Positions 23,968-39,479 of a stretch of DNA of 64,000 bases are shown here, piece after piece. The notes below the pieces were generated by a model that ran no database searches, was not told the DNA's origin, and saw nothing but the letters and a program-made list of their open reading frames with translations. This stretch comes from an uncultured Chloroflexia bacterium (GTDB taxonomy: Bacteria > Chloroflexota > Limnocylindria > Limnocylindrales > CSP1-4). The stretch's first letter is position 1. The number at the start of each line of letters is the position of its first letter. The translations under genes and the position numbers were made by a program. The stretch lies in NCBI GenBank assembly GCA_963759135.1, contig CAVWXU010000027.1, positions 58,296-122,295 of the forward strand. Reading direction: 5' to 3'.

Positions 23968-23973
23968 TAGAAT
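23968..23973 (+). promoter_or_regulatory. -10-like hexamer TAGAAT 7 nt upstream of the ATG of the following gene, implying a leaderless transcript
   Basis: gccgcgtgTAGAATcccgcgcATG read directly. Confidence 0.35.
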
Positions 23974-23980
23974 CCCGCGC

Positions 23981-24523
23981 ATGACGTCGGACGGGCTCAG
24001 CGAGATGGTCGTCGAGAGCGTGCGGGTCCACATGCTGTCGAGCCAGCACGTCGTGATCCTCAGGGAGCTCGGCCGGGAGCGCTACCTCCCGATCTGGATC
24101 GGACCCTGGGAGGCGAACGCCATCGCCATGAAGCTGCAGGACCTCAAGCCGGAGCGCCCCCTGACGCACGACCTGTTCGTCAGCACGCTCGAGCAGCTCG
24201 GCGCGACGCTGCGCCAGGTGGTGGTCTCCGACCTGGCGGACGAGACGTTCCGCGCCCGGATGGTCATCGAGGTGGGCGGCCGGGCGCTCGACGTGGATGC
24301 CCGGCCGAGCGACGCCATCGCGCTCGCGATCCGCGGCGGTGTCTCGATCTATGCGACGCAGGCGGTGCTCGACCGAGCCGGGGTGGAGCCCGACGCCGAT
24401 GCGGGCGCGGACGAGGAGGGCAGCGACCAGCTGGACGTCTTCCGCGACTTCGTCAACTCGCTCGACGTCGACCTGGGCGACGCACCCGGGGGCGGCGGGT
24501 CGGAGGGCCGGCCCGGCCGGTAG
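23981..24523 (+). CDS. Bifunctional nuclease family protein (BFN / DUF151)
   Basis: Conserved BFN core (HVVILRELGRERYLPIWIGPWEANAIAMKLQDLKPERPLTHDL...RPSDAIALAIRGGVSIYATQAVLD). Confidence 0.7.
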   Translation: MTSDGLSEMVVESVRVHMLSSQHVVILRELGRERYLPIWIGPWEANAIAMKLQDLKPERPLTHDLFVSTLEQLGATLRQVVVSDLADETFRARMVIEVGGRALDVDARPSDAIALAIRGGVSIYATQAVLDRAGVEPDADAGADEEGSDQLDVFRDFVNSLDVDLGDAPGGGGSEGRPGR

Positions 24524-24553: not shown

Positions 24554-24659
24554 AACGGCAGGTTGCGCGGCACCGGCACCCGCCGGCCCGTCAGGCCGGG
24601 TCCCGCAACGGCAGGTTGCGCGGCACCGACACCCGCCGGCCCGTCAGGCCGGGTCCCGC
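24554..24659. repeat. Perfect-but-one 53-bp tandem duplication (x2) covering the last about 10 codons and the stop codon of the minus-strand GT2 gene
   Basis: aacggcaggttgcgcggcaccg(g/a)cacccgccggcccgtcaggccgggtcccgc at 24554-24606 and 24607-24659. The gene stop (tca on the plus strand) is at 24644-24646, with a second copy at 24591-24593. Confidence 0.85.
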
Positions 24660-25432
24660 ACCACGGGGAAGCCGCGCCGCAGGGCTGCCTCCCGGTTCGC
24701 CCACAGGCGCAGGCGGAGCATCCAGAAGTCGCGGACCGCACGCAGCACGACGCCCGGCCGTGCGCCCGTCGCCCGCCCGGCAGTGCGCGGGAAGTGTGGC
24801 ACCCCCACCTCCTGCAGCCGCCCGCCCCGCTCGCGGAACTTGATCAGCAGCTCCGCCGACAGGAACGCCCCGCGCGACTCGAGGCGGACCCCCTCCAGCG
24901 CTTCGCGCCGGAAGACCTTGCACGCGCAGTCCACGTCGCGCACGCGGAGCCCGAAGAACGTCAGCAGCGCGAGCCGGTAGAGGCGCGCGTAGACGAGCCG
25001 CACGGCCGGATCCGCGCGCTGCGTCCGGTACCCGACCACCGCGTCGGGCCGGTCCACCGCCACCGCCGCCGGCGGCTCGAACGCCGCCAGCAACCGGTCC
25101 AGGTCGGCGACGCGAAACTGCCGATCCCCGTCCGTGAACGCGACGACCGGGTACCGCGCGGCCGCGAAGCCGCTCCGCAGGGCGGCCCCGTACCCCAGGT
25201 TCGTGGCGTGGTGCACGGCACGCACGACGTCGGGGTGCTCGGCGGCCAGGCGGTCCGCCAGCGCCGGCGTGGCGTCCGTGCTGCCATCGTCGACCGCGAT
25301 GATCTCGAAACGCTCGGCCATTGCCGGCAGACGATCCAGCGCCTCCTGGATCAGCCCCTCGATGTTGGCCTCCTCGTCGTGGGCGGGGAAGAAGTAGGAG
25401 AGTGCCGGAACCCGTGCCGCGCGATCGGTCAC
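24644..25432 (-). CDS. GT2 glycosyltransferase of the polyprenyl/dolichyl-phosphate sugar synthase type (Ppm1/DPM1/GtrB-like)
   Basis: LSYFFPAHDEEANIEGLIQEALDRLP...EIIAVDDGSTDATPALADRLAAEHPDVVRAVHHATNLGYGAALRSGFAAARYPVVAFTDGDRQF. The DxD motif is the DGD within VAFTDGDRQF. GTG start at 25432. Overlaps the downstream gene by 4 nt. Confidence 0.75.
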   Translation of the reverse strand: MTDRAARVPALSYFFPAHDEEANIEGLIQEALDRLPAMAERFEIIAVDDGSTDATPALADRLAAEHPDVVRAVHHATNLGYGAALRSGFAAARYPVVAFTDGDRQFRVADLDRLLAAFEPPAAVAVDRPDAVVGYRTQRADPAVRLVYARLYRLALLTFFGLRVRDVDCACKVFRREALEGVRLESRGAFLSAELLIKFRERGGRLQEVGVPHFPRTAGRATGARPGVVLRAVRDFWMLRLRLWANREAALRRGFPVVRDPA

Positions 25433-26961
25433 TGGATGAGCTCCCAGAGCGGGCTGTAGCCGGGGATCGTGTCGTGCTCGACGAGGTGGTAACGGTACTC
25501 GAGTGAGGCGATGTCTCCCGGCTGGCGGATCAGGAAGATCGGACGGTGCAGGGCCTCGAAGTGCGCCACCGCGTTCGGCACCGTCTCGTAGCCGTCGTCG
25601 AGCAGGTCGCGGTCGTCCACGATCTCCACGTCCGGCCGGCGTCCCTCCACCCACCGTCCGTACCAGAGGGTCGTCGAGTAGCTCCACCACGAGATCACGA
25701 CGGCGTCGCGCGGGAGGATCGCGTACGCGGCGTCGAGCCAGCGCGCGCCGCTGTCGTCGGCGGCCCCGCGCTGCTGCGCCTGGCCGGCGAGGGCGCGTTG
25801 CCCCGGCAGCGCCAGCACGATGACGGCCGCCAGGACCACGGCGCCGGCCCGCACGAGGCGCGGAACGGAGCGCGCCCCGAGGCGGCCGAGCCACCCGGCC
25901 GCGGCGTCCCACGCAAACGAGGCGGCGACGCCCGCCCAGAGCGCCACGATCGCGAGCGGCACCAGGTAATAGCGGTCCGGGAACCCGTCGTCATAGGCAC
26001 GGGCGAAGAGCGTGACGATGACGAACCAGGTGGCGGTGAGGAGCGCGACCGGCAGTCTCGGGCCTCGAAGGCGACCGAGCCCGGCGAGCACGGCCAAGAA
26101 CCCCGCCAGGGCCGCGGCGAGCACGGCGGCGCTCAGCTGGGTGGCAAAGATGTCGACGACCGCGCCGGGCCCGCCGGTGAGCGGGTCGTGCAGCAGGCCG
26201 CCGAACTGCAGCCCGAGCACCAGGTACGCGAAACGCGCCGGCGTGGTGGGGTGTGCGTAGTCGAGCGGCGGGTTCATCGAAGCCCGGATGGGGATGTAGG
26301 CGTACAGCAGGACGGTGATCACCACGATCAGGCCCGCACACGTGGCGACGAACCGGGGGCGCCGCGCGAAGAGGCTCGGCTGGGCCGCGAGGATGAGGAG
26401 CAGGATGCCGGGGGCCAGCAGCACGCTCAGCGCGTGGTTGCCCAGCGCAACCCCGTACACCGCCGCGGCCGACAGGAGCAGACGATCCGCGACCCGGTCG
26501 GGTGTCCCCGGACGACCGGTGCCGGTCTCCTGCACGCGCTGCGCCCACGCGACCAGGAGGAAGAGCAGCAGTGCAGAGAGGAACAGGTGCAGAGCGTGCG
26601 GGTCGGCGCGTTCTGCCGTCCACCAGGAGATGGGAGCGCTGGCCAGCACGATGCCGGACGCGATCGCCGGAACCACGCGCCCGGTCAGACGCTGCACGGT
26701 GGCGGCGACGAGACCGGCCGACCCGGCCATCAGGATGGCGGAGAGCAGGTCGATGCGGAAGGCGGTCTCCCCGAACGGCGACAGCACGACGCCGGCCGCC
26801 CAGGTGAGCAGCACGTAGGCCGGGAAGCCGGTCGGATGCGCGATCCCCAGCACGGACCCCACCGTCTGAAACTCGGCGGTGTCCCAGAACCCGACGGTAG
26901 GCATGAGCGTGGGCAGGTAGAGCACGAGCGCCACGAGGAAGGCGCCGATTCCGCTCACCAT
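25429..26961 (-). CDS. GT-C-fold polytopic membrane glycosyltransferase, DUF2723/TMEM260-like
   Basis: N-terminal motif LPTLMPTVGFWDTAEFQTVGSVLGIAHPTGFPAYVLL, then more than 10 TM helices and a C-terminal soluble domain. The ATG at 26961 overlaps the stop of the upstream gene (ATGgTGA). Confidence 0.55.
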   Translation of the reverse strand: MVSGIGAFLVALVLYLPTLMPTVGFWDTAEFQTVGSVLGIAHPTGFPAYVLLTWAAGVVLSPFGETAFRIDLLSAILMAGSAGLVAATVQRLTGRVVPAIASGIVLASAPISWWTAERADPHALHLFLSALLLFLLVAWAQRVQETGTGRPGTPDRVADRLLLSAAAVYGVALGNHALSVLLAPGILLLILAAQPSLFARRPRFVATCAGLIVVITVLLYAYIPIRASMNPPLDYAHPTTPARFAYLVLGLQFGGLLHDPLTGGPGAVVDIFATQLSAAVLAAALAGFLAVLAGLGRLRGPRLPVALLTATWFVIVTLFARAYDDGFPDRYYLVPLAIVALWAGVAASFAWDAAAGWLGRLGARSVPRLVRAGAVVLAAVIVLALPGQRALAGQAQQRGAADDSGARWLDAAYAILPRDAVVISWWSYSTTLWYGRWVEGRRPDVEIVDDRDLLDDGYETVPNAVAHFEALHRPIFLIRQPGDIASLEYRYHLVEHDTIPGYSPLWELIQ

Positions 26962-28373
26962 CCCAGGGTCACGCCCCAGTACACGCCCCACAGGTTCACC
27001 AGCACCGACAGCCCGACGAGGAGAAGGACGCGCCGGTTGAGCCCCATGCGGGCGATCGCCAGCGTGACCGGCACCAGCGCAAAGGCAACGAAGTCGTTGC
27101 TGAAGCGCCAGCCGAACTGTACCCACCCCTGGCTGAAATGTGCCGCGTCGGCCAGCCCGATCAGTACGACGGCGAGGCCGGCCGCAGCCACGACCCGGTC
27201 GCGCCGGAGCCGCCGGAGCGCCGGGATCGCGAGCAGGTACGCCGGACTCACCAGGAGCAACCCCATCCCGATCGGGTCGGGCCGCACGGTGCCGCAATTC
27301 GGGTCGAGCAGCGCGAGGCCGCACTCGGGCCGGATCTCGGGCGGGTTCAGCAGCGCGAGCGGCAGATTCTGCGGGATGTAGCGCACGTCCTCCACCCCCC
27401 AGCTCGCATGGTAGAGCGCCGGGTCGGGGCGGTACTCGGTCCGCGCGATGGACGCGTAGGCCGGGCTGAACGGCTGTCCCGTGGACAAGACGTTGTAGCC
27501 GGCCAGTACAGCGACGGGGATGGCGGCTCCCGCCACCGCCAGGACCAGACGACTGCGCCAGGTGCCGCCCCCGACGACGACCAGGAACGGCAGGCCGAAG
27601 ATGACGGTCAGCCTGGCGAGCGTCGCGAGCCCCAGCAGCAGGCCTGCGACGAAGGTAGCGCGACCACCGTCGAGGCGGCGCTGACGCACCGGCGCACGCC
27701 GCGAGGAGTCCGCGTCGATCGCGATGGTCACCGCGAGGAGCGAAAGTCCCACCGCGACCACGTGGGCCTGGAACCAGGTCGTTCCGATCGCCGCGGCGTA
27801 CCAGGCCACGGTCCCGAATGCGAAGAAGAGCGTGGCGACCAGGGCGACTCCGCGGTCGACTGCCAGGCGCCGGCACAGGCGCCAGGCAAGCCCCACGTCG
27901 AGCGAGCCCAGCAGTGCCGTGATCAGGGATGCCGGAGTGGCCAGGCCCAGGAAGGCGACGACCGGGACGAGTACCACTGCAGGCAACGGGGGAAAAGGCA
28001 GGAGTCCGAACCCCGGGTGACCGGGATCCGGCACCACGTCCTGGAAGTACGCGTTCTGGTGGGGTCCGCTCGCGACGGGGAACGCGATGGCCAGACGGCC
28101 GTGCAACCAGGCGTCCGCCTGCCACACGAAGTGGTTGTACAGGTCGCCATGGAGCGGGTTGGAGACCACGTAGACGAGCGCCGCGACTCCCACGAGCACG
28201 AGACCGATCTCGCGGGGCGAGATCTCGACGAGGCGCAGTCCGAGGGACGTGGTCGGGCCCCGCGCAGGGAGCCTCGGAGAGCCGTCGGCGCGGGGCGGGG
28301 CGGGCCACGAGGCCGGTGGGATCGCGGCTCGGGGAGCCGGCCGGCCGGTGTCCGTTGCTATACTGCCGTCCAC
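26955..28373 (-). CDS. GT-C-fold polytopic membrane glycosyltransferase (ArnT/PMT/GT87-like family; exact family unresolved)
   Basis: Multi-TM protein with a conserved acidic first loop (GDLYNHFVWQADAWLHGRLAIAF). Translationally coupled to the DUF2723 gene. Confidence 0.5.
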   Translation of the reverse strand: MDGSIATDTGRPAPRAAIPPASWPAPPRADGSPRLPARGPTTSLGLRLVEISPREIGLVLVGVAALVYVVSNPLHGDLYNHFVWQADAWLHGRLAIAFPVASGPHQNAYFQDVVPDPGHPGFGLLPFPPLPAVVLVPVVAFLGLATPASLITALLGSLDVGLAWRLCRRLAVDRGVALVATLFFAFGTVAWYAAAIGTTWFQAHVVAVGLSLLAVTIAIDADSSRRAPVRQRRLDGGRATFVAGLLLGLATLARLTVIFGLPFLVVVGGGTWRSRLVLAVAGAAIPVAVLAGYNVLSTGQPFSPAYASIARTEYRPDPALYHASWGVEDVRYIPQNLPLALLNPPEIRPECGLALLDPNCGTVRPDPIGMGLLLVSPAYLLAIPALRRLRRDRVVAAAGLAVVLIGLADAAHFSQGWVQFGWRFSNDFVAFALVPVTLAIARMGLNRRVLLLVGLSVLVNLWGVYWGVTLGW

Positions 28374-28460
28374 CTCGTCGCTCGTCAGGAGGCTCGTTCC
28401 CTGGCTCGATCGCCTTCGGCGGGTGGGACCGGACGCGGCCCTGGAGCGCCGGGAGGGTCG

Positions 28461-31400
28461 GTGCGGGCTGGCGCCCGAATTCCCGCCATCGCACTGCTCC
28501 TTCTCGCCGGGCTCGCCCTGCGGCTCATCATCGCATACGTCCTCTTCCCGGGTTCGGGGTTCACGACCGACATCTCGAGCTTCACGTCGTGGGCGATGAC
28601 GCTCGCCCGCTACGGTCCTCCGGGCTTCTACGCCAACGCCGGCTTCGCCGACTACACCCCCGGCTACCTGTACATCCTCTGGCTGGTGGGTCTGGCCGGA
28701 CGCGCCGTGGCCACCCTGACCGGCACGGACCAGGGCACAGTCACCGGCCAGCTGATCAAGCTGCCCGCGATGCTGCTGGACCTGGCCGTCGCGTACGTCC
28801 TGTACCGCACGGTACGCGCGTGGAACGGGCGCCTGGACGAGCCGCCGGCCGGCGGGCCGAACACGCGCCCGGCGGACGCCCGACGGGTGCGGCTCCTCGC
28901 GCTCGGCGTGGCGGCGCTCTACCTGTTCAACCCCGTGCCGTGGTACGACTCCGCGCTCTGGGGCCAGGTGGACGCCCTAGGGGCGCTGGTCGTGCTCGGC
29001 GCCGTGCTCGCGCTCGTCGGCGGCTGGTCGGAGTCGGCCGCCGCGCTCACCGCGCTCGCGGCCCTCGTCAAGCCCCAGTTCGGGCTCGTGCTTGCGCCGA
29101 TCGTCGGGGTGGTGCTGTTGCGGCGCCACCTGTTCGTCCCGGGTTCCGGGCCCCGGCCGCGGATCCGCCGCGAGCGGCTGGCCGGCTGGTTCGTCGAAGA
29201 GCAGGGACCGTGGCGCCTCGTCTCGTGCGTCGCCGCCGGCCTGGCGGTGCTGTTCGTCGTGATCGTGCCGTTCCGCCTCGACATCGTGGGGCTGCTGCGA
29301 CTCGTGCTGACCACCGCTGGCGAGTATCACTACCTGACGGTCAACGCCTACAACCCATGGGCGCTGATCGCCGACCCGGGCGGGGCGTCGCTCGCGCACG
29401 CCGGCACATGGTCGGACGACCTGGTCCCGCTGCTCGGACCGCTGCCGGGGTTCGCCGTCGGCGCGATCCTGCTCCTCGCCGGAATCGCGCTGGGCGTGCT
29501 GCAGGTCGCGTGGCGGGACGATCGCCGCTCGATCCTGCTCGCGGCGGCGTTTCTCTCGCTGGCGTTCTTCGTGCTGCCAACGCGCGTCCACGAGCGCTAC
29601 CTGTTCCCGATCTTCGTCTTCCTCCCGCTGCTCGCGATGACCTCTCGCCGCTGGCTGGTGGCCACGGTGGTGCTGGCCGCGGCGTCGTTCATGAACCTGC
29701 ATGGCGTCCTCACGCTGCCGCTCTACGCCACGCCGAACATCGCGAACCTGCTGGGCGGACCCGCGTTCCGCTCGGAAGCCGGGGTCGCGATCTCGGCGCT
29801 CGGGCACGTGGGGGTGTTCCTGCTCGCGCTGGCCGCGCTCGATCCCGTGCGCCTGCTGTTCGGCCGCTGGCGGTCGGCTCCGGGGGCGCAGCCGGCGTTG
29901 CCGGAGCCGCAGCTGGCGTTGCCGGAGCCGCAGCTGGCGTTGCCGGAGCCGGGCGCCGGCGGCCAGGGAGCCGCCGGCGGTGCGTTCGCCGGGGATGCAG
30001 CCGGGTCGCCTGGCGCGGCCGCCATCGCCCCGGCCGCGGAGTGGATGGACCGCCCGCCGACGCGCTGGGGCCCGGAGATGCTCCGCGGCCTCATGGGACG
30101 GGGATCGATCCGGGCCGATCGCAGCCGGCAGCTGCACGGCGAGGGCGGAGGGCGCATCGACCGGCTCGATCTGCTGGTCATGGCGCTGCTGGTCGTCGCG
30201 GCCATGACCGTCCGCATCGTCGGCCTCGGGCAGCCGTACGGCATGTACTTCGACGAGGTCTACCACGCCCGCACGGCCACCGAGTTCCTGCAGGACTGGC
30301 GGTACGGCATGCCGCACGCCATCTACGAGTTCACGCACCCGCACCTGGCCAAGTACCTGATGGCCGTGGGGCTCGTGGCGTTCGGCGACGACCGGGTCAC
30401 GGGGACGAGCAGCCTGGGCGTGCCCGTGCGGGCCACGGCGATCGAGCCGCGCTGGAGCGACGCGGGCGCCTCCTCCGGCCGCGACGGGGACCGGCTCTAC
30501 GTCGCGACCGGCAGCGACGTGGTCGCGTACGATCTCCAGGGACGCGGCGTCGTTGCCAGGATCGCGGTGCCAGGCGCGACCGCGGTCGCCGTCGACTCCG
30601 TCCAGCACGTGCTGTACGCGGCGGCAGGCGACGGCACCATCTGGTCGCTGCCCACGTCGCAGCTCGACGCGCTGCGCTCGACCAGCGGCGGCGTGGCCGA
30701 CATCCAGCCCAGGAAGCTCGCCGGCTCCGGCGCCGGTGCACCCGTGCAACGGCTGGTCGCCTCCGCGACCGGCGGAAGCCTGCTGGCGGTGACCACGACC
30801 GGCCAGCTCGTCAGTATCGGCGCCTCCATCACCCCGGGGTCCGTGCTCGGCCGGACCGCCGCCAGCCAGCAAGCCGGCACCGGCCCGGTCTTGGGAGTCG
30901 TCCCGCTCGATCCCGTGACCGGCGTCACCGTCGACCTCACGAAGTCCTACGACCCCGCGAAGCTCGGCGCGCTGACGACGGCGCTGGGCGTGACGAGCGG
31001 CCCCATCTTCGACCTGCCGGCGGCGGTCTCGAGGTGGCAGGAGGCGGTGGCTGCCGACACCGCCACGGTGCTGCGTGACGAGTCCGCCAGCGTCCCCACC
31101 GCCGCCGAGGACGCCGCGCTCGCCGCCGCCCGTCAGGCGCTGGCGGCGGACCAGCAGCAGCTCGCCACTGCCAGGGCCAACCTTCGACCGGTGGTCGTCG
31201 CGGCGTTCCTCGACGCCGCGCAGCAGGCGAACGTGCAGGGGGCGCTGCAGGCGCTCGGCGACGCGGCGAGCCTCGACACGTCGCCCGTCTTCGCGGTTTC
31301 AGCCGGCACCTCGGTCCGCTTCCTGGACGCGGTCACCCTCGACCCTGTCTTCTCGGTGAACCTGGGCGGGACCGCAGGGGGCATGACCTTCGTCGAGTCC

Positions 31401-33932
31401 GGCATCGACGAGCCCACGTTGTACGTCGCGTCGGATCGCATGCTCCGCACGATCCAGCTTCCGCCGGGCGCGCAGCCGATCCTCGGATCTCCCGTCCCCA
31501 TGCCCGGCACCGTCACCGACGCCACGTGGGACGCGGCGTCGAACATGGTCCACGTGCTGGGCAGGACCCCCGGCGGCTCATCCCCCACGATCTACGTCGT
31601 CGAGCCGCACGGCAACGCCGTGTACGCGAACGCGAACCTGCCGTTCACGCCCGTCGCCTGGGTGTTCGACCAGCAGCCCGGCAACCCGTCCGGCGACCGC
31701 CAGCAGATCCTGGTCTTCTCGGGGACCGGCTCGGTCGCCGCGGTCGACGCCGGGAGCCATGCCTTCGCGTGGCGCCTGCCCGGCGTCATCGCGGGATCGC
31801 TGCTCGTGGCGCTGCTCTACCTGCTGGCGCGGATCCTGTTCCGGCGACGCTCCGTGGGGCTGTTCGTCGCCGCGTTCGCGATGGTGGACGGCATGCTCTT
31901 CGCGAACTCGCGGATCGGCATGAACGACATCTACGCCGCGCTCTTCATCGTGGCCGCGTACGCCGTGTATGCCGCGCTCGCCCTCGGCCGCTGGCGTGGC
32001 CGGTCCGCGCTGCTGGCAGGCCTTCCGCTCCTCGGGATCCTGCTCGGACTGGCGTGTGCCTCGAAGTGGGTCGGCTTCTACGCGGTCGGAGGCATCGGGC
32101 TGCTGACCCTGCTGCGCACCGGCCTCGGGCGCGTCCTGGCGCTGGGCGCCATGGCGGTCCTGACCGGGATCCTTGGCTACTACTCGATCACCGCCGCGCC
32201 GGACACCACCAGTCCGCAGCTCAACGTCACGTTCCTGCTCATGATGATCGCGCTGACCCTGCTGCTCGCCGCGGCAATCGCCGTGCGCTCCATCCACTGG
32301 ACCGTCGAGGAGTTGCGGTTCGCGGTCCTCGCGCCACTCGCGCTCGGGGTCCTGGCCGCTGCCGCCGGCGTCGGCCTCGGATCGCGGCTGCACGGCGGCC
32401 CACTGTCGCAGAACATGCTGCTGGCCGGGGGCTTCGCGCTGGTCGTCGTGGCGTTCGTGGCGTACGCGGCGCCGCTCGTCCTTGCCCGATTCGGCGCGGG
32501 CCCACTCGCCCCGCCACCCCGGCCGGACGAGGCTCGCATGTACGCGGATGCGCCGGCCGACCCACCCGCCGAGAGCTGGCTGGTGCCGGGGGCCTCTCTC
32601 GGCCTGCCGTGGCTGTGGGCGCTGGCCTGCATGACCGTCGTGCCGCTCGTCGTCTACGTCGTCGTGTACATCCCCTGGGTCGCCCTGGGCAACCAGTTCT
32701 GGACCGGGTTTCCGGCAGGCAACCACGGGCAGACCCTGTGGGATCTGACCGTCTCGATGTTCAACTACCACAACGACCTCCGCGTGGCCCATCCCGCCTC
32801 GTCTCCGTGGTGGGCGTGGCCCTTCGACCTCAAGCCCGTGTGGTGGTACCAGGGCTCCCTGGCGAACGACACGGGCGCCTCGATCTACGACGCGGGGAAC
32901 CTTGTGCTCTTCTGGCTGTCGGTCACGGCCGTCCCATGGACGGCCTGGCAGGCGTGGCGGCGGCGAAGCCTCGCCCTCGGGATCGTGGTCATGGCGTTCG
33001 CCAGCCAGTGGCTGCCCTGGGTGTGGGTGGACCGCGCGACGTTCCAGTACCACGTCCTGACCGCGCTGCCCTTCACGTTCCTCGCGCTTGCGTATTTCGT
33101 GGCGGAGCTGTGGCACGGCCCGGCGCGGCGGACGTGGGCGCTGGCGCGCGCGACCGCCGCCGTGGCGATCCTGGGACCGGCGATCCTGTGGCTCGCCAAG
33201 GGTCCCCTCTGCGTCTTTGCCGGGACGGCCGCGGTGGACCCGGCGTCGCAGGTGTGTGGCGCGGTTGCCAACCCGGTGATCGTGACGCAGCGGGTGGCCG
33301 CCGCGGCCATCGTCATCGTCATCGGGGCGCTCGGCGTCGGCTGGCTCTGGTGGACTGCGCGCGGCGCGTCCGCCGCCGACGGCGGCGGAGCGGCCCGGCT
33401 ACGCGCGTTGGCCCCGGCGGTGGCTGCCGGGGTGATCGTGCTGGTGGCGCTTGCGGTCGTCCAGACGATCGTGCCGGACGTCCAGTTCGTCTCCGTCCCG
33501 CTCGGGAGCGGCGGGCCGTTCGTCGTCGCCGCGATCGTCGGCGTGCTGCTGTGCGGCCCCGCCTGGCTGGTGCTGCGCGCCCGCGACCCGCGGCGGTTCG
33601 CGCTGGGGATCGTGGGCGCGGCGGCCCTCTGGTTCGTCGTCTGGTATCCGAACATCGCCGCCCTGCCACTGCCCGGGTCCTTCGTGAACATGTACCAGGG
33701 ACTGCTGCCGACCTGGATCTACGACTTCCAGTTCACGGTCAACATGACCCCGGCTGCGCACCCGAAACTGATCACGGCCGAATTGATCTCGCTGATCGTG
33801 GCGGTCGTCATCGGCTCGCTGGCCGTGATGTACGCGGCCCGCGCCTGGAGCCTCGAGTGGGCGGTTCGGCGCGCGGAGCGTGACAGGGGCGCCGCAGAGT
33901 CTGCGGGCGAAACGGGACCGGCGACGACGTAG
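28461..33932 (+). CDS. Giant (1823 aa) multidomain membrane glycosyltransferase. Order: N-terminal GT-C domain; Pro-rich repeat linker; PMT-type (GT39-like) domain carrying the DE motif; an inserted about 550-aa beta-propeller-like extracytoplasmic domain; further PMT-like TM segments and a C-terminal TM region.
   Basis: N-terminal domain YGPPGFYANAGFADYTPGYLYILWLVGL with acidic loop TTDISSF. PMT signature MYFDEVYHARTATEFLQDWRYGMPHAIYEFTHPHLAKYLMAVGLVAF, followed later by LFANSRIGMNDIYAALFIVAAY...ASKWVGFYAVGGIGLL. WWAWPFDLKPVWWYQG lies near the C-terminus. Start assigned to GTG 28461 after GGGAGGG. Confidence 0.7.
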   Translation: MRAGARIPAIALLLLAGLALRLIIAYVLFPGSGFTTDISSFTSWAMTLARYGPPGFYANAGFADYTPGYLYILWLVGLAGRAVATLTGTDQGTVTGQLIKLPAMLLDLAVAYVLYRTVRAWNGRLDEPPAGGPNTRPADARRVRLLALGVAALYLFNPVPWYDSALWGQVDALGALVVLGAVLALVGGWSESAAALTALAALVKPQFGLVLAPIVGVVLLRRHLFVPGSGPRPRIRRERLAGWFVEEQGPWRLVSCVAAGLAVLFVVIVPFRLDIVGLLRLVLTTAGEYHYLTVNAYNPWALIADPGGASLAHAGTWSDDLVPLLGPLPGFAVGAILLLAGIALGVLQVAWRDDRRSILLAAAFLSLAFFVLPTRVHERYLFPIFVFLPLLAMTSRRWLVATVVLAAASFMNLHGVLTLPLYATPNIANLLGGPAFRSEAGVAISALGHVGVFLLALAALDPVRLLFGRWRSAPGAQPALPEPQLALPEPQLALPEPGAGGQGAAGGAFAGDAAGSPGAAAIAPAAEWMDRPPTRWGPEMLRGLMGRGSIRADRSRQLHGEGGGRIDRLDLLVMALLVVAAMTVRIVGLGQPYGMYFDEVYHARTATEFLQDWRYGMPHAIYEFTHPHLAKYLMAVGLVAFGDDRVTGTSSLGVPVRATAIEPRWSDAGASSGRDGDRLYVATGSDVVAYDLQGRGVVARIAVPGATAVAVDSVQHVLYAAAGDGTIWSLPTSQLDALRSTSGGVADIQPRKLAGSGAGAPVQRLVASATGGSLLAVTTTGQLVSIGASITPGSVLGRTAASQQAGTGPVLGVVPLDPVTGVTVDLTKSYDPAKLGALTTALGVTSGPIFDLPAAVSRWQEAVAADTATVLRDESASVPTAAEDAALAAARQALAADQQQLATARANLRPVVVAAFLDAAQQANVQGALQALGDAASLDTSPVFAVSAGTSVRFLDAVTLDPVFSVNLGGTAGGMTFVESGIDEPTLYVASDRMLRTIQLPPGAQPILGSPVPMPGTVTDATWDAASNMVHVLGRTPGGSSPTIYVVEPHGNAVYANANLPFTPVAWVFDQQPGNPSGDRQQILVFSGTGSVAAVDAGSHAFAWRLPGVIAGSLLVALLYLLARILFRRRSVGLFVAAFAMVDGMLFANSRIGMNDIYAALFIVAAYAVYAALALGRWRGRSALLAGLPLLGILLGLACASKWVGFYAVGGIGLLTLLRTGLGRVLALGAMAVLTGILGYYSITAAPDTTSPQLNVTFLLMMIALTLLLAAAIAVRSIHWTVEELRFAVLAPLALGVLAAAAGVGLGSRLHGGPLSQNMLLAGGFALVVVAFVAYAAPLVLARFGAGPLAPPPRPDEARMYADAPADPPAESWLVPGASLGLPWLWALACMTVVPLVVYVVVYIPWVALGNQFWTGFPAGNHGQTLWDLTVSMFNYHNDLRVAHPASSPWWAWPFDLKPVWWYQGSLANDTGASIYDAGNLVLFWLSVTAVPWTAWQAWRRRSLALGIVVMAFASQWLPWVWVDRATFQYHVLTALPFTFLALAYFVAELWHGPARRTWALARATAAVAILGPAILWLAKGPLCVFAGTAAVDPASQVCGAVANPVIVTQRVAAAAIVIVIGALGVGWLWWTARGASAADGGGAARLRALAPAVAAGVIVLVALAVVQTIVPDVQFVSVPLGSGGPFVVAAIVGVLLCGPAWLVLRARDPRRFALGIVGAAALWFVVWYPNIAALPLPGSFVNMYQGLLPTWIYDFQFTVNMTPAAHPKLITAELISLIVAVVIGSLAVMYAARAWSLEWAVRRAERDRGAAESAGETGPATT
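29889..29951. repeat. 21-bp tandem repeat (about 3 copies: cagctggcgttgccggagccg) encoding PALPEPQLALPEPQLALPEPG in the linker of the giant GT
   Basis: Read directly. Confidence 0.7.
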
Positions 33933-33983
33933 GTGGACGGGGCCTGTGGGCGAAACGGGGCCGGCGCCTACGTAGGCGGACGG
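33905..33983. repeat. Two-copy tandem duplication (36-bp unit, 43-bp period) spanning the stop codon of the giant GT gene
   Basis: gggcgaaacggg(a/g)ccggcg(acg/cct)acgtagg(t/c)ggacgg at 33905-33940 and 33948-33983. Gene stop TAG at 33930-33932 lies in copy 1. Confidence 0.7.
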
Positions 33984-34028
33984 TGGTCGGGCCGCGATCC
34001 GATCCCGTCTCGTCGGGGCCGGCGTTGC

Positions 34029-35228
34029 CTACTCGGCGACTCCCGCCGGGAGGGGCGGAACGGCCGCGGAGCGAAGCGGGATCGGCGCGTGGAACGCGGG
34101 GGGCAACTGGCCCTGTGCGGCAAGCCGACGGACCACGAACCCGTAGTAGTCGTCCACCCGTGCCGCCACCCGGTCCCAGCCGAACTGGTGCGACCGTTCG
34201 CGACCGGACCGGCCCATCCGGGCGCGCTCTTCCGGGTCGTCGAGGAGGCGGCGGATCGCCGCGGCAAGGGCCTCCGGGTCGCGCGGCGGGACCAGCAACC
34301 CCTGTTCGCCGCGGCGCACGACGCCCTTGTAGCCGTGGATGTCGCTGCACACGATGGGCGTTCCCGCCGCCATCGCCTCCAGCAGCACGATGCCGAACGA
34401 CTCGCGCCCGGTCGCCGGCGACACGTAGACGTCCGCAGTCGCGAACCAGCGGGCCTTCTCCTCCTCGGTGACGCGCCCCAGCATCTCGACGCCGCCGAGC
34501 CGCCGCGTCATCAGGTAGCGGCGCGCCTCACGTTCCTGCGGCCCGTGTCCGACCACGAGCAGGCGGCAGTCGCGACCTTCACGGCGGAGCAGCCTGTAGG
34601 CCTTCAGCAGGAGCAGGAGACCCTTCCGTTCCTCGAACCGGCCGACGAACAGGAGGTTCGGGGTCCCGTCGCGCCACCGTTCGATCGGATGCGCGGTCGC
34701 GAACCGGTCGACCTCGACGCCGTTGGGAATGACCTTGTACTCGCCCGGGAAGTACTTGTCGATGAAGTAGCGGGCGGCCACGCTCACCGCGATCCGCCCG
34801 TGCAACCGTCGCGCGTACCCGGACAGCATGCGCCGCCCGAACTCGTACGCGGGACTCCAGCCGTTGTAGGCATGGAACGTCGCCACGTTGACGCTTGTCG
34901 ACTCCCGCAGCAGCACGAGCGACAGGAACGGCACGAAGGGTTCGTGGAAGTGCAGCAGGTCGAACTGCTCGCGCTCGAGCACGTCCCGGACCTGCGAGAG
35001 GAAGCGCGGCGACACCGTCAGCGTCCCGACAGACCCGTTCGAGGGCACGCTGAAGCCGCGCCCGATGCGGATGATGTCACCCTCGCTCGAACGCTGGAGG
35101 CCGTGCGTGCTGCTGATGATCCGCACGTCGTGGCCCCGCTCCCGGAGGTGCTGGTGCAGGAAGCCGACGTGCGCGTTGACGCCGCCCGGCAGCGGGTAGA
35201 TGTACGGGGTCACCAGCCCGATCTTCAC
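34029..35228 (-). CDS. GT4-family glycosyltransferase (PimA/PimB-like mannosyltransferase candidate)
   Basis: GT-B fold with an EX7E-type C-terminal motif (ESFGIVLLEAMAAGTPIVCSDIHGYKGVV). N-terminal MKIGLVTPYIYPLPGGVNAHV. Confidence 0.8.
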   Translation of the reverse strand: MKIGLVTPYIYPLPGGVNAHVGFLHQHLRERGHDVRIISSTHGLQRSSEGDIIRIGRGFSVPSNGSVGTLTVSPRFLSQVRDVLEREQFDLLHFHEPFVPFLSLVLLRESTSVNVATFHAYNGWSPAYEFGRRMLSGYARRLHGRIAVSVAARYFIDKYFPGEYKVIPNGVEVDRFATAHPIERWRDGTPNLLFVGRFEERKGLLLLLKAYRLLRREGRDCRLLVVGHGPQEREARRYLMTRRLGGVEMLGRVTEEEKARWFATADVYVSPATGRESFGIVLLEAMAAGTPIVCSDIHGYKGVVRRGEQGLLVPPRDPEALAAAIRRLLDDPEERARMGRSGRERSHQFGWDRVAARVDDYYGFVVRRLAAQGQLPPAFHAPIPLRSAAVPPLPAGVAE

Positions 35229-36154
35229 GGCGCCGCCTTGCCCTCGGCCTGCGCCGGTTCGACGTCCACGGACGGCGACCCTCGGTCGGCGCCCTCTCCT
35301 GTGAACCGCGGCGGACGCAGCCGGCCGCCGGGGTACCCTAGGTCTCGTCCGGTCCGCGTGCGCAACAGTGCCCCGCGCAGGTCGTCGCGGATGTCGCGCC
35401 CGTACTTGCGCAGCTGCCGGCGGTACATCTGCACCTCGAAGCCGATCGTCCAGAACTCACCGTGCCAGCCGGTCCGGTGCTCGAGGATCGCGCAGCGCAG
35501 GTCCTCTGCCGTACGCCCGGGGAACGTGGTGTAGCCGGTGGCGATCGCCTCGAGCAGGTGGCCGTCGCTCCCGCCCACGGCCGCCATGCCGAGCTCGTCG
35601 GCCAGCGCCACGACCTTCGCGTGATGGCTTCGCCCCGCGGATGTCGGGTTGAACGCCTCGAGCGCGTCGAGATGGAAGCGCGGATCGGGGTCCGACTGGA
35701 GCCGGCGAATGGCGCGCCCGCTGGCGCAGATCGGGTACGGCGCGAGCGGGTGGGCGGCGATCGCCAGCCCGCCCTGCTCGTGGACTTCGGCGATTGTCGT
35801 CCGGAGCGACTGGAGCGGCCGGATCCGCTCCTCCAGGAACAGCGCAAGGAGGTGACCCCCACGCGTCGTGATCTCTTCGGCGACGATGACCTCCACGCGC
35901 GACCCGCGCTCGCGCGCCAGGGAGCGCGCGGCCAGGCCCGCGTCGATCCGCTCGTGGTCGCTGATGCCGACGACGTCGAGGTCCGTATGTCGTTCGACGT
36001 GGTCCAGGATCTCCTCCACGCTGTTCACGCCGTCGGACGCGAGGGTGTGGACGTGCGGATCGGCGCGACCAAGTCGCTCGGCCGGCTCGTCTGACGGGCC
36101 ACGCTGGTCCATGCTCACGCTTCTTCCCAGATCGGCTGGAAGATCGACCACCAC
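35225..36154 (-). CDS. PHP-domain phosphoesterase
   Basis: PHP motifs HVHTLASDG, VGISDHE, GGSDGHL. Confidence 0.7.
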   Translation of the reverse strand: MVVDLPADLGRSVSMDQRGPSDEPAERLGRADPHVHTLASDGVNSVEEILDHVERHTDLDVVGISDHERIDAGLAARSLARERGSRVEVIVAEEITTRGGHLLALFLEERIRPLQSLRTTIAEVHEQGGLAIAAHPLAPYPICASGRAIRRLQSDPDPRFHLDALEAFNPTSAGRSHHAKVVALADELGMAAVGGSDGHLLEAIATGYTTFPGRTAEDLRCAILEHRTGWHGEFWTIGFEVQMYRRQLRKYGRDIRDDLRGALLRTRTGRDLGYPGGRLRPPRFTGEGADRGSPSVDVEPAQAEGKAAP

Positions 36155-37065
36155 TGCTCGGGCGCCTCCGCCACGAGGCGCTCGAACGCGCGGGCGACGC
36201 CGTCGACGAAGAGCCGCGCGCGTTCCCGTCGCGTGTCGCCCCCGGGCGATTCGATGGGGATCACGAACGCCCGGTACTCGCCCCAGCCCGAGCGGACGGT
36301 TGCAGCGGCAAACGCCCGTACGCCCGTGTCGGCAGCCAGGATGCCGGGGCCGGCCGGCAGCCGCGTCATCGCCCCGAACAGCGCGACCGGGACGCCCCGG
36401 CCGGAGACATCCCGGTCGGCGATGAGCCCGACGATGTCGCCACGCGCGAGCGCCTGCTCGAGCACCCGTCGGGCGTGGGCGATGGGCACGATCCGTACGC
36501 CCGTCCTGCCTCGCGTTCGCTCCAGGTACGCCTGGAGCGCCGGGTTGCGCAGGGTCTCCATGGGCGCGACGGCCCGGCGCCCGCGCACCACCGTGATGTA
36601 CTGGGCCGGCAGCTCGAGCGCGCCGAGGTGGAGGCCGATCACCAGGGCCGGGCCGGGGCGGCCCAGCTCCCTGTCCACCACCTCAGGGTCGGCGAGCGAC
36701 AGGTGGCGGGCGAGGAACCCGGCGTCGACGCGCACGTTCGTCGCGACTTCGAGGTAGTACCTGACACGGTGGCCGAAGGCCGCCCGGAGCAGGCTCTCCA
36801 GCCGAGCCGGGTCGCGGGCGGCGCGACGGATGCGCGGGGAGGCCATCCCGTTCTCGTCCAGCCAGGCGCATACGCGGCGGAGGTTCGCGCGGGCCAGCGC
36901 CCGCTGGCCCGGCGCAGCCAGGTACCAGCCCAGGCCGGCGGCCTGGGCGATCCGGTGGAGTGGACCGGCCGGCAGGCGGGATGCGGCGCCCGACAGCGCG
37001 ATGAGCGCCTGTGCCCCCAGTCGCTGACGACGCGTCATCGGGGGCCCGTGGCGGGGTTCAGCCAT
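36115..37065 (-). CDS. Lysophospholipid/lipid A-type acyltransferase (HtrB/LpxL family; PIM acyltransferase-like)
   Basis: LPLAT-family architecture (VIGLHLGALELPAQY...ADRDVSGRGVPVALFGAMTRLPAGPGILAADTG). Alternative start at 37038. Confidence 0.7.
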   Translation of the reverse strand: MAEPRHGPPMTRRQRLGAQALIALSGAASRLPAGPLHRIAQAAGLGWYLAAPGQRALARANLRRVCAWLDENGMASPRIRRAARDPARLESLLRAAFGHRVRYYLEVATNVRVDAGFLARHLSLADPEVVDRELGRPGPALVIGLHLGALELPAQYITVVRGRRAVAPMETLRNPALQAYLERTRGRTGVRIVPIAHARRVLEQALARGDIVGLIADRDVSGRGVPVALFGAMTRLPAGPGILAADTGVRAFAAATVRSGWGEYRAFVIPIESPGGDTRRERARLFVDGVARAFERLVAEAPEQWWSIFQPIWEEA

Positions 37066-37126
37066 GAGCCACCGGCTCGGCAGTGCCGCCGGCCTCGGCT
37101 GCCGCGGCTCCGTCGCCGCCACCGCC

Positions 37127-38227
37127 TCAGGGGCCTGCGCTCCGCCGGCGGCGACGACGCGTCCCGTCCGCGGCCTCGTCCGCGAGCGCGGCAGCCGCCC
37201 TGGCGGCCAGCTCGTCCCCCTCGCGATCTGTCTCCGGCCAGATCGGCTTGAAGGAGTACCACTGCTCCGGCGCCACCTCGATCGCACGCTGCAGCGCGTC
37301 GGCGACGGCCTGCGTTGCCCGCTGGATGGCGGCCGGAGAGCCGGACGTCACCTCGATCGGGTCGCCGTGCTCGGCGTGGTAGCGTCCGTCGCGTGCCCGG
37401 CGGTTCACCACCGGCACGATCGCCGCGCCGGTCCTGGCGGCGAGGGCCGCCGGCCCCGCGGGGAGCGTCGTCCAGTCGCCGAAGAACCGCACCGGGATGC
37501 CGTCGGCCCGGTATCCCCAGTCCACCAGGAGTGCGAGGATTCCGGCGTCGCGGAGCACGCGGTGGATCTCGCGAAGGTTGCGCCAGGCGATCACCTGCAC
37601 GCCCCACCGCCGGCGCTGCTCGGCCAGCAACTCGTAGAGCTCCGGATACGCGGTGTCATCGGCGACGCCATAGGCGGGGAAGCCGTGGGAAGCCATCGCG
37701 GCCGCGAGGGTCTCCATGCTGCCGACGTGGAGCGTCACGATGATCATCGCGCGGCCCTCGGCGCGCAGCCTCTCGTGGAGACGCTGGAACGACTCGAGGC
37801 CGTGCTCCCCGCCCACGTCGACGAGGCGCGCCGGCACGTCGGCCGGCAGGGCGGGGAGCCGCATCAGCCCGACGACGTAGCCGGCGTACGCGCGGTACAC
37901 GTCCCGCGCGAGTCGCCCGACGCGAGGGTGTCCCGCGGGCAGCCCGAGGACATGCCTCGCGTTGGCAGTGATGGCCCGGCGCTTGGCCGGCCAGAGCGCG
38001 TAGCCGGCCAGGAAGCCGAGCTGCGCGACCGCGACCACCGGGCCCTCCGGGAGGTGTCCCAGCAGCCAGGACGTCGCCCGGTAGGCGCGGACGGTCGCCT
38101 TCTCCTGGAGCCGATACAGGAGCTGTGCGCCGCGTCCCCTCCCGCTCGCCCGGCGGTGGGGCGCATACGCGACGCCGTGGCCGCCGTCCGCGTGCGGCGC
38201 CCCACCGCCCCCATCGCCGGCCGTCAT
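37127..38227 (-). CDS. Second HtrB/LpxL-family acyltransferase (tandem paralog)
   Basis: IVTLHVGSMETLAAAMASHGFPAYGVADD...DWGYRADGIPVRFFGDWTTLPAGPAALAARTG. Confidence 0.7.
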   Translation of the reverse strand: MTAGDGGGGAPHADGGHGVAYAPHRRASGRGRGAQLLYRLQEKATVRAYRATSWLLGHLPEGPVVAVAQLGFLAGYALWPAKRRAITANARHVLGLPAGHPRVGRLARDVYRAYAGYVVGLMRLPALPADVPARLVDVGGEHGLESFQRLHERLRAEGRAMIIVTLHVGSMETLAAAMASHGFPAYGVADDTAYPELYELLAEQRRRWGVQVIAWRNLREIHRVLRDAGILALLVDWGYRADGIPVRFFGDWTTLPAGPAALAARTGAAIVPVVNRRARDGRYHAEHGDPIEVTSGSPAAIQRATQAVADALQRAIEVAPEQWYSFKPIWPETDREGDELAARAAAALADEAADGTRRRRRRSAGP

Positions 38228-38240
38228 CAGCCCAGCCCCG

Positions 38241-39479
38241 CTAGCCTGCCCGCCCTGTCGCGGACGGCCGCTTCCTCGACGCCGGCGCGGGCTTGCCCGG
38301 CGCCGTGGCCGCCGGCTCGGCCCCCGTGAGCGTCTCGTTGTCCTCCCCGCGGATGAAGGCCTCCACCCGCTCGCGCGCCACGTCGTCGTGCTGCTGGAGC
38401 GGCGGGCTCTTCATGAAGTACGAGGACGGGCCGACGAGCGTCCCGCACAGGCCGCGGTCGAGGCCGAGCTTCAGGCAGCGGATCGCGTCGGTGATGACGC
38501 CTGCGCTGTTGGGGCTGTCCCAGACCTCGAGCTTGATCTCGGCGCGCAGCGGCACGTCGCCGAAGGTCGTGCCCTCCATCTGGATGTAGCAGAACTTGCG
38601 GTCCTTCAACCAGGGCACGTGGTCCGACGGTCCGACGTGGATGTCGTCGGGGTCGAGCTCGTAGTCGAGCATGGACGTGACGGCGTTGGTCTTGGAGATC
38701 TTCTTGGACTCGAGCCGTTCGCGCTCGAGCATGTTGAGGAAGTCGGTGTTGCCCCCGAAGTTCAGCTGGTAGGTCCGATCCAGCCGGACCCCGCGGTCCA
38801 TGAAGAGGCGGGTCATGACGCGGTGGGTGATGGTGGCGCCCACCTGGCTCTTGATGTCGTCACCGATGATGGGCAGGCCGGCCTCGGCGAAGCGGCGCTG
38901 CCAGTAGGGCTCGCGGCCGATGAAGACCGGGATGGCGTTGATGAAGCCGACGCCCGCATTGAGGGCCTGCTCGACGTACCACTTGGTGGCGGCTTCGCTG
39001 CCCACCGGCAGGTAGCTGACCATCAGGTCGACCTCGCGCTCGCGCAGGATGCGGACGATGTCGGCGGTCGGGCCGGGCGCCTTCTCGATGATCTGGCTCA
39101 GGTACTTGCCCAGGCCGTCGTGCGTCATGCCCCGCTCGACGGTGACGCCCAGGTGCGGCACCTGCTGGAACACGTAGGTGTTGTTGGGCGCCTGGTAGAT
39201 CGCCTCGGAGAGGTCCTTGCCGACCTTGTTCTTGTCGATGTCGAACGCCGCGACGAACTCGATGTCGCGGATGTGATAGCCGCCCAGCTCGACGTGCATG
39301 ATGCCCGGGATGGTGTCGCCCAGCTTCGCGTTCTCGTAGTAGTAGCGGCCCTGCACCAGGCTGCTGGCGCAGTTGCCGACGCCGACGATCGCGACGCGGA
39401 TCTTGCCGTCCTTGCGACGCGCGCGCCCGCCGCCCTTGTCGCTCGAGGTTGCCGCGGCGATCTTCGTGATCTCGTCCAC
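38241..39479 (-). CDS. ino1: myo-Inositol-1-phosphate synthase (MIPS)
   Basis: [24 protein letters not shown]...[31 protein letters not shown]...[11 protein letters not shown]. Start assigned to GTG 39479 after AAAGGAG; an in-frame ATG also exists at 39521. Confidence 0.9.

Follow-up and report, generated by a model that had tools for sequence, protein, structure and literature searches.

How glycosyltransferases with the GT-C membrane fold choose their acceptors is poorly understood. We analyzed a 64,000-nucleotide (nt) stretch of DNA, here called the window, from an uncultured Chloroflexia bacterium (GTDB order Limnocylindrales, CSP1-4; GenBank assembly GCA_963759135.1, contig CAVWXU010000027.1, forward-strand positions 58,296 to 122,295), in which one gene at window positions 28461 to 33932 (+) appeared to join two such enzymes and to carry a large soluble domain inside one of them. 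An initial annotation, made from the sequence alone, had proposed a single open reading frame (ORF) of 1,823 amino acids (aa) that fuses two GT-C units, the second of them a member of the protein O-mannosyltransferase (PMT) family interrupted by a propeller-like insertion. The locus raises two questions: whether such a fusion is real, and what a protein built in this way could do. We are highly confident of the architecture itself, which comprises two GT-C units, a linker between them, an inserted propeller, and a C-terminal extension. This architecture is not known to have been described before; it varies a known kind of enzyme, overturns nothing in current understanding, and is conserved across an uncultured class of Chloroflexota. 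The window protein would be a compact system in which to study acceptor recognition.

Two GT-C units in one reading frame

The gene begins with a GTG codon, has a Shine-Dalgarno-like site (GGGAGGG) 6 nt 5' of that start, and ends with a stop codon at 33930 to 33932; its product is identical to a protein in the public databases (P0001). The GC content of the window is 72%, and DNA of this composition gives long spurious ORFs, several of which are among the nearby ORFs of more than 1,000 aa, so the length of the fusion ORF is by itself no proof of coding. The frame is genuinely coding on the evidence of its homologs, its Pfam matches, two AlphaFold models, and the AT skew, whose sign flips at about 28.4 kb; such a change is expected at the meeting point of divergent genes for membrane proteins. 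The coordinates first given for the ORF were exact. More than 120 full-length homologs of 1,464 to 1,946 aa, with identities down to about 43%, were found in public protein databases, and when the protein was cut into seven segments, all except the linker were present in every one of the top 120 homologs. Family members that are 200 to 570 aa longer than the window protein also occur (P0144, 2,390 aa; P0152, 2,012 aa; P0231, 2,092 aa). From hydropathy only, we estimate about 28 to 30 transmembrane (TM) segments in the whole protein. That two GT-C units share this one ORF was borne out by different means for each half: the N-terminal unit was recognized by its fold in Foldseek searches, and the C-terminal unit passed the Pfam thresholds for PMT (PF02366, 22.7 bits) and PMT_4TMC (PF16192, 32.4 bits).

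The PMT-family unit starts at aa 566 to 645 (30156 to 30395, +), a segment that holds TM1 and the first part of external loop 1 and aligns with residues 50 to 111 of yeast Pmt1 (FDEVY versus FDEVH). In this segment, 25 columns are invariant, as scored here and below over 44 diverse homologs. They include the catalytic-type motif F597-D598-E599, which matches the FDEV of yeast Pmt1; the HPHLAKY helix lies in the same segment. The PMT/GT39 signature that had been read from the sequence (YFDEVYHAR...EFTHPHLAKY) is therefore supported by the alignment with Pmt1, DE motif included.

The PMT core from TM2 onward occupies aa 1097 to 1420 (31749 to 32720, +). The PMT profile scored 52 bits over aa 1100 to 1218, and it matched at positions 81 to 198 of 245 only, because an insert splits the domain. 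The fold resumes at aa 1100 to 1109, aligned with Pmt1 residues 138/142 to 251, and R1105, R1151, N1155-D1156, and K1202-W1203 are invariant in the core. The most conserved segment of the protein is the PMT_4TMC region at aa 1421 to 1560 (32721 to 33140, +), which has 40 invariant columns, scored 47.8 bits over aa 1425 to 1558, carries an HPASSPWWAWP...KPVW loop, and aligns with the fungal PMTs of PDB entries 9i5k and 9e61 (Pmt4). At least 11 hydrophobic segments lie between aa 566 and 1590, with a charge bias that, judged from hydropathy, fits a cytoplasmic N terminus.

Domain searches thus placed the second unit in the family that the initial annotation had named, and by its profile matches it is a divergent (GT39-type) member of it. 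The NCBIfam Pmt equivalog NF058602 scored 42.4 bits against a cutoff of 800, which indicates that the window protein is not an ortholog of the characterized bacterial (actinobacterial) Pmt. A MIR (beta-trefoil) domain gave no Pfam match at E ≤ 10 in searches with the segments of the unit, and the loops in question span 30 and 88 aa.

The N-terminal unit spans aa 1 to 470 (28461 to 29870, +), probably has about 12 TM segments, and gave a confident AlphaFold model (predicted local distance difference test [pLDDT], 89.6; predicted template modeling score [pTM], 0.90). The best PDB match in Foldseek was yeast ALG6 (6snh; E = 4e-6; TM-score, 0.59/0.62), followed by PIG-U chains in the second to fourth ranks (E = 8e-6 to 6e-5). 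Foldseek gave a probability of 1.00 for ALG6, PIG-U, glycosylphosphatidylinositol mannosyltransferase I (GPI-MT-I), AglB, ArnT, PimE, and ALG3/9/12, and the top matches were GT-C proteins only, in agreement with the description of the first 480 aa or so as a GT-C membrane domain. PimE ranked 9th (E = 1.4e-3; query TM-score, 0.42), and matches to EmbB and AftD were weak (E of about 0.2). Against ALG6, PIG-U, and PIG-M/GPI-MT-I, the unit showed 13 to 15% identity over about 480 to 500 aligned columns, with TM-scores of 0.54 to 0.62.

At the level of sequence, this unit is far more isolated. No Pfam glycosyltransferase family reached its threshold; Alg6_Alg8 (PF03155) scored 20.7 bits against a threshold of 25 over profile positions 303 to 385 only. 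The unit is not a member of PMT_2 or GT39. A sequence search of the PDB returned no match at E ≤ 10, and searching through a family profile returned nothing meaningful. To judge from its model, the unit is GT-C by fold only and a member of no curated family.

Seventy positions of the N-terminal unit are invariant. They include D37, D64-Y65-x-P67, K100, D107, Y162-D163-S164, W167, Q169, D171, E191, K204-P205-Q206, and R375-x-H377-E378-R379-Y380, and the H-E-R-Y of the last motif falls within the region aligned to Alg6_Alg8. D37, in the acidic first loop (TTDISSF) that the initial annotation had pointed out, and D64 both lie in the first external loop, so the unit retains the conserved loop 1 acidic residue expected of a GT-C enzyme, and we infer a catalytic role for the two aspartates from their conservation. 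The GT-C fold, the 70 invariant positions with their loop 1 acidic residues, and the H-E-R-Y motif together make the N-terminal unit look like an active enzyme.

A propeller in the first external loop of the PMT unit

Between the DE motif and TM2, in external loop 1 of the PMT unit, aa 646 to 1096 (30396 to 31748, +) take the place of about 26 residues of Pmt1 loop 1. AlphaFold, with which the insert and the N-terminal unit were modeled as separate segments, predicted a WD40-like beta-propeller of 28 strands in seven four-stranded blades (pLDDT, 91.0; pTM, 0.90). With this model, Foldseek matched 1,229 PDB entries or chains at E ≤ 1e-3; those ranked highest were propellers without exception, at identities of 7 to 12%. 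They included WDR5, Lis1, UTP15, and a Thermomonospora WD40 domain, with target TM-scores of 0.70 to 0.77; another was 9cnw_B, a chain of the BAM complex that we take to be BamB. The insert matched no Pfam family at E ≤ 10 and no NCBIfam family at E ≤ 1, the profiles of propeller repeats (WD40, PQQ, and others) included.

The structure prediction thus upheld the proposal of a propeller-like insertion within the PMT fold and extended it to a full set of seven blades with a helical subdomain, while its size proved to be about 450 aa rather than about 550. The earlier view that the PMT fold continues only about 570 residues later was mistaken, as that count ran on past TM2 and TM3 to the SRIGMND motif. 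In the model, a long beta-hairpin juts out from the propeller and bears the helical subdomain (aa 832 to 935; 30954 to 31265, +). The length of this subdomain differs by lineage (0 to 6, about 55, or 104 aa), and the propeller core of about 316 to 345 aa is universal. The first and last blades, which adjoin the membrane anchors, are the most conserved, and the distal blades and the helical subdomain are variable, which is the pattern expected for an enzyme-anchored module with a lineage-specific binding surface.

Past the last TM segment of the PMT core, we also found a conserved C-terminal extension (aa 1561 to 1823; 33141 to 33929, +) that the initial annotation had not described. Hydropathy indicates five hydrophobic segments in it. 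A pair of cysteines (C1584/C1599) is invariant in the loop after the last PMT-core TM segment, and an LLPTWxYxFQFxVN loop is conserved along with a DPRRF motif. The extension had no match in Pfam or NCBIfam.

In the mycobacterial enzyme MtPMT, the N terminus was shown experimentally to be cytoplasmic and the C terminus periplasmic; the catalytic Asp is in external loop 1 (EL1), the acceptor groove is formed from EL1, EL4Cter, and EL5, and bacterial PMTs have no MIR domain (PMC12331936). Based on this orientation, the positive-inside charge distribution of the window protein, and its cysteine pair, both catalytic loops and the propeller would lie outside the cytoplasmic membrane and the linker inside.

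Reality of the fusion

The two units are joined by a Pro/Ala/Gly-rich linker at aa 471 to 565 (29871 to 30155, +), which is predicted to be disordered (pLDDT below 50 at aa 482 to 500) and is probably cytoplasmic. It is not conserved: most homologs gave no BLAST match to it, its conservation was 0.30 with a gap fraction of 0.35, and its length among relatives ranges from 76 to 779 aa. The in-frame repeat noticed at first inspection was recovered by TRF as a 21-bp tandem repeat of 3.4 copies at 29880 to 29951 (+), which encodes PALPEPQ heptads. The repeat is absent from a homolog of 86% identity (P0002), and its copy number among close strains is 2, 3, or more, always in frame. Since its period equals seven codons, a copy-number error or misassembly within the repeat can neither shift the frame nor create a join.

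A scan with a single genome taken from each species yielded at least 348 genomes that encode a relative of the fusion protein; we examined the best 80 loci, to which all counts out of 80 refer. The initial annotation had raised the prospect of a stop or frameshift hidden at the linker. In 72 of the 80 loci, both units lie in one stop-free frame. The frame changes inside the linker in four loci (L045, L052, L054, and L055), which are either true adjacent genes or the product of indel errors; three of these four have isolate names with the prefix MFD, presumably long-read Microflora Danica assemblies, which are prone to indel errors. Two loci (L058 and L077) have several frame changes, and two more are truncated where their contigs end. 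Proteins of 1,823 to 1,828 aa that are more than 90% identical to the window protein are encoded on three independent JGI contigs, with the same fusion as on the NCBI/ENA contig. Seven loci that had seemed to carry a PMT unit only were rejected as such, as in all of them the N-terminal unit precedes the PMT unit in a shared, stop-free frame. The fusion of the two units is genuine and not an artifact.

Separate occurrence of the halves, raised as a possibility from the outset, was confirmed for the N-terminal unit. An exhaustive search with this unit alone returned 3,390 cluster representatives at E ≤ 1e-3 (178 at E ≤ 1e-30), many of which are 440 to 580 aa long and span the whole unit. One relative of 41% identity (P0145) stands alone on a contig of 62 kb that has no PMT gene near it, and another (P0135) is apparently standalone on a short 3.5-kb contig. 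Given standalone relatives such as P0145 and the many relatives of unit length, we conclude from sequence comparison that the N-terminal unit belongs to an independent bacterial family, for which no Pfam model reaches threshold in the window protein. A further relative, P0126, is followed by a second paralog of the same family with a 4-bp overlap; in the related metagenome-assembled genome (MAG) GCA_030154945.1 (L083, positions 385 to 3074), the first gene of such a pair is a standalone 491-aa copy and the paralog that overlaps it by 4 bp runs off the contig, so the family also occurs as tandem duplicates. Locus L083 was considered as a split, two-gene version of the fusion and rejected because its second gene is a paralog of the N-terminal unit and not a PMT.

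Distribution and gene neighborhood

All 80 loci come from Chloroflexota MAGs, most of them labeled Ca. Limnocylindrales or Limnocylindria, and the full-length fusion was confirmed solely for genomes and proteins that carry a Chloroflexota label. Ca. Limnocylindria is an uncultured class with a median genome size of about 2.4 Mbp and a GC content of 68.9% (PMC10608941). Two contig-end fragments that are more than 90% identical to the fusion protein (P0266 and P0267; NCBI HXQ95785.1 and HXQ95914.1) came from a MAG labeled Candidatus Acidoferrales, which is probably a binning or taxonomy error because every full-length relative is from Chloroflexota.

The fusion gene is near the replication origin, since dnaA and recF are in the window. 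The origin-proximal set (17185 to 21591) consists of dnaA (17185 to 18534) and a 559-aa ORF (19912 to 21591) with a RecF-type SMC_N domain (aa 70 to 416) and a DciA/DUF721 domain (aa 455 to 533); the ORF is either a true fusion or a pair of genes that the maximal-ORF call has run together. Beyond it, positions 21604 to 24523 encode a bifunctional-nuclease-domain (BFN) protein and a protein of 756 aa whose PP2C phosphatase domain is partial; both are syntenic with the fusion gene in 69 to 70 of 80 loci, on a par with the glycosylation genes.

Upstream of the fusion gene and divergent from it, three genes at 24644 to 28373 (-) form a cluster that is kept in 61 to 69 of 80 loci, and with the fusion gene they place four GT-C-type units within 9 kb. 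The nearest encodes a 472-aa polytopic membrane protein (26955 to 28373, -; kept in 67/80 loci) that is probably another GT-C-type transferase; it weakly resembles the putative glycosyltransferases of the LA_3751/LA_3752 family (E = 1.7e-6, short of the cutoff). Next, at a distance of about 1.5 kb from the fusion gene, comes a gene for a TMEM260-like (DUF2723) GT-C protein of about 503 aa (25429 to 26940, -; PF11028, E = 1e-20; 61/80 loci). The third encodes a GT2 of the polyprenyl-phosphate-sugar synthase type (DPM1/GtrB/ArnC-like; 24644 to 25912, -; Glycos_transf_2, E = 2e-25; 69/80 loci), with subthreshold NCBIfam matches to dolichyl-phosphate hexose transferase, ArnC, and PpgS; translation probably begins not at the first codon of the maximal ORF but around its aa 122. 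The four GT-C-like proteins or units of the locus showed no pairwise similarity when they were compared. Among the annotated genes of the cluster, no gene for a GtrA-type flippase was identified.

On the other side, and convergent with the fusion gene, is a PimA homolog of family GT4 (34029 to 35228, -), whose full-length match to Mycobacterium smegmatis PimA had an E value of 1.4e-62; the next family matched at 3e-26. It is less than 500 nt from the fusion gene in 72 of 76 loci. The end of the fusion gene overlaps a 43-bp tandem repeat (33901 to 33983; 1.9 copies; 87% match), which covers the stop codon and the short gap that separates the gene from the convergent pimA and which may be a terminator or a regulatory element. 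The genes that follow on the same strand are predicted to encode a PHP phosphoesterase (35225 to 36154), possibly a phosphatidylinositol phosphate (PIP) phosphatase; two PatA-like acyltransferases (36115 to 37287 and 37127 to 38227), whose only solved relatives are PatA structures; inositol-1-phosphate synthase (Ino1; 38241 to 39521); and PIP synthase (39487 to 40587). Together, positions 34029 to 40587 (-) amount to a complete operon of the phosphatidylinositol (PI)/acyl-phosphatidylinositol mannoside (PIM) type in a Chloroflexota genome. PIMs are, to our knowledge, regarded as an actinobacterial trait, and we found nothing relevant in searches for literature that links PIMs to Chloroflexi or deals with glycosyltransferases of Limnocylindria. 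The rest of the operon (35225 to 40587, -) is kept in 63 to 75 of 80 loci, and the glycosylation neighbors overall are syntenic in 61 to 76 of 80.

Several long ORFs of 533 to 1,183 aa in this region are spurious, as is typical of DNA with 72% GC. A 1,021-aa ORF at 25429 to 28494 (-), considered as a long TMEM260-like protein or a second fusion, was rejected because its first 520 or so codons are junk and the stretch holds the two genes at 25429 to 26940 and 26955 to 28373. A 533-aa ORF ("orf533") at 33933 to 35534 (+), considered as a conserved downstream gene, was rejected as well; its translation contains 82 Arg residues and lacks TM segments, and the opposite strand bears the real gene, that of the PimA homolog. 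The translations of both are rich in Arg and Pro, the real genes being on the other strand or shorter, and both still give strong "conservation" in tblastn because they shadow real genes. The ORFs at 20035 to 23586 (-) and 20892 to 23984 (+) likewise count among the spurious ones.

What the fusion protein might do

We propose that the fusion protein carries out outward-facing protein glycosylation with a polyprenyl-phosphate sugar as the donor and the propeller as the docking site for the acceptor, a reading to which we give an even chance of being right; we infer this function, like every other discussed here, from homology, models, and context. Both units would take their sugar, most likely mannose by family default, from a polyprenyl-phosphate sugar, which the neighboring DPM1/GtrB-type GT2 could make. 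The PMT unit would transfer the sugar to Ser/Thr residues of exported proteins. The propeller, if it sits over the active site, could act as an acceptor-docking or selectivity module; because EL1 forms one wall of the acceptor groove in both MtPMT and yeast Pmt1, an origin in EL1 would put the propeller in a good position to receive acceptors at the active site. In this capacity it might fill the role that the MIR domain has in eukaryotic PMTs and that TPR arrays have in TMTC and TMEM260. The N-terminal unit would be a second active transferase that adds to the first sugar or else mannosylates a lipid, for example a PI-anchored glycolipid made by the PimA/PatA operon, and the fusion would hold the two units together at a fixed 1:1 ratio, reminiscent of the obligate dimers of eukaryotic PMTs. 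The suggestion in the initial annotation that substrate recognition is coupled to two sequential transfers remains plausible.

A more specific version of this proposal is tentative, and we think it unlikely to hold in full. The protein could be a self-contained two-enzyme machine in which the propeller catches particular exported proteins at the entrance to the PMT active site and the tethered N-terminal unit adds the next sugar at once, or the N-terminal unit could divert the same polyprenyl-phosphate-mannose pool to a PI-anchored lipoglycan made by the PimA/PatA operon. Either way, the uncultured Chloroflexota class would have an Actinobacteria-like mannosylated envelope with both PIM-type glycolipids and O-mannosylated proteins, centered on a GT-C architecture that is not known from elsewhere.

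Several points weigh against the protein-glycosylation proposal. The PMT unit is so distant from characterized bacterial Pmt that a protein acceptor is extrapolated from the family at large. Glycans, and not just proteins, are among the ligands that propellers can bind. PIG-U, the second-best structural match of the N-terminal unit, is a non-catalytic protein with the GT-C fold. Last, synteny is a weak functional argument, because the whole origin-proximal block is conserved, with the unrelated PP2C and BFN genes included; adjacency is suggestive and is not proof of a shared pathway.

An alternative hypothesis is that both GT-C units extend a glycolipid of the PIM or lipomannan type at the outer membrane surface of the cell's cytoplasmic membrane, with the propeller as a carbohydrate-binding module for the growing chain, comparable to the periplasmic ones of EmbA/B/C and AftD. 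We consider this possible but improbable. In Actinobacteria, higher PIMs and lipomannan are made by polyprenyl-phosphate-mannose-dependent GT-C enzymes, and it would fit such a role that a complete PI-to-acyl-PIM gene set is convergent with and close to the fusion gene, that the PMT unit has diverged widely from enzymes with proven protein O-mannosyltransferase activity, and that PimE is among the fold matches of the N-terminal unit. However, the second unit passes both PMT and PMT_4TMC and keeps the DE motif and the PMT_4TMC loop, PimE is just the 9th-ranked match, the synteny may mirror only the conserved origin-proximal block, and lipoglycan synthesis could fall just as well to the two other GT-C-like genes upstream.

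It is decidedly less probable that only the PMT unit is catalytic and that the N-terminal unit is a non-enzymatic module like PIG-U of the GPI transamidase, whose task would be to bind the polyprenyl-phosphate sugar or a lipid acceptor, to pass one of these on, or simply to serve as a fixed dimer partner. The high ranks of the PIG-U chains in Foldseek, the PIG-U Pfam matches recorded for some homologs, and the lack of a Pfam glycosyltransferase family at threshold all lean this way, as does the fact that eukaryotic PMTs act as (obligate) dimers (PMC7759382 and PMC12705809). A module without enzymatic activity is hard to square with 70 invariant positions that include two loop 1 aspartates and the H-E-R-Y motif, with an active enzyme, ALG6, as the best fold match, and with the standalone gene P0145, which implies a function of the unit's own. 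That the single ORF arose from two adjacent genes joined by misassembly or sequencing error in a repetitive, GC-rich linker is extremely improbable and essentially refuted, as the frame switches in a few loci and the low complexity of the repeat-bearing linker are set against species-level genomes that are stop-free across nonhomologous linkers, four contigs that agree on the same protein, and a repeat period that keeps the frame.

The covalent fusion of two unrelated GT-C enzymes serves as a Rosetta-stone link, which predicts that the otherwise unannotated ALG6/PIG-U-like bacterial family, with its roughly 3,390 cluster representatives, takes part in a pathway shared with PMT-type enzymes. 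The small genomes of Ca. Limnocylindria retain a 5.5-kb gene near the origin beside the PimA/PatA/Ino1/PIP synthase operon, which points to PI-based mannolipids and protein mannosylation outside Actinobacteria. Their presence would bear on how Chloroflexota envelopes are built.

Comparison with known systems

We found no report of a propeller in loop 1 of a PMT or of a tandem GT-C fusion in a literature search that was not exhaustive. The closest bacterial counterpart of the second unit is GT39 as represented by Mycobacterium tuberculosis MtPMT (Rv1002c), which likewise has a PMT and PMT_4TMC core, an acidic motif in external loop 1, and no MIR domain, and whose orientation the fusion is expected to share. 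MtPMT differs in being about 500 aa long, with 11 TM helices and a short loop 1, whereas the fusion has a 450-aa propeller in that loop, a preceding GT-C unit, and five extra hydrophobic segments.

Three-component systems of extracytoplasmic glycosylation are described as a GT2 polyprenyl-phosphate-sugar synthase, a flippase, and a GT-C enzyme (PMC11127046). Like them, the fusion locus has a DPM1/GtrB-type GT2 beside GT-C genes; those systems have one GT-C enzyme, whereas the fusion locus has four GT-C-type units, two of them fused. The closest folds to the N-terminal unit, ALG6 (GT57), PIG-U, and PIG-M/GPI-MT-I, are eukaryotic proteins of the endoplasmic reticulum, whereas the unit itself is from a bacterial family.

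PimE, EmbA/B/C, and AftD are GT-C enzymes that depend on polyprenyl-phosphate sugars, and some of them have large periplasmic substrate-binding domains; the fusion locus shares with this group the company of PimA and PatA homologs. The accessory domains of Emb and AftD are C-terminal carbohydrate-binding modules, in contrast to the propeller in loop 1 of the fusion, and the fold matches to these enzymes are weak.

The eukaryotic enzymes PMT1, PMT2, and PMT4 (POMT1/2) resemble the fusion in their catalytic fold and DE motif and in having a large noncytoplasmic soluble domain that is thought to handle the acceptor. They pair two GT-C units as a dimer, and the window protein pairs two as a fusion. 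Their partner is another PMT, whereas that of the window protein is an unrelated ALG6/PIG-U-like GT-C unit, and their accessory domain is a beta-trefoil in loop 4 (TM7 to TM8) rather than a beta-propeller in loop 1. TMTC1-4 and TMEM260 are presented as GT-C O-mannosyltransferases with TPR arrays that select acceptor proteins (PMC7801869 and PMC10214176). They, too, combine a GT-C catalytic membrane domain with a repeat-protein module, but they are single-unit enzymes with a C-terminal TPR solenoid rather than a loop-inserted propeller. The known accessory modules of GT-C enzymes (MIR, TPR, and carbohydrate binding) are thus in loop 4 or at the C terminus, and a propeller in catalytic loop 1 is a different solution.

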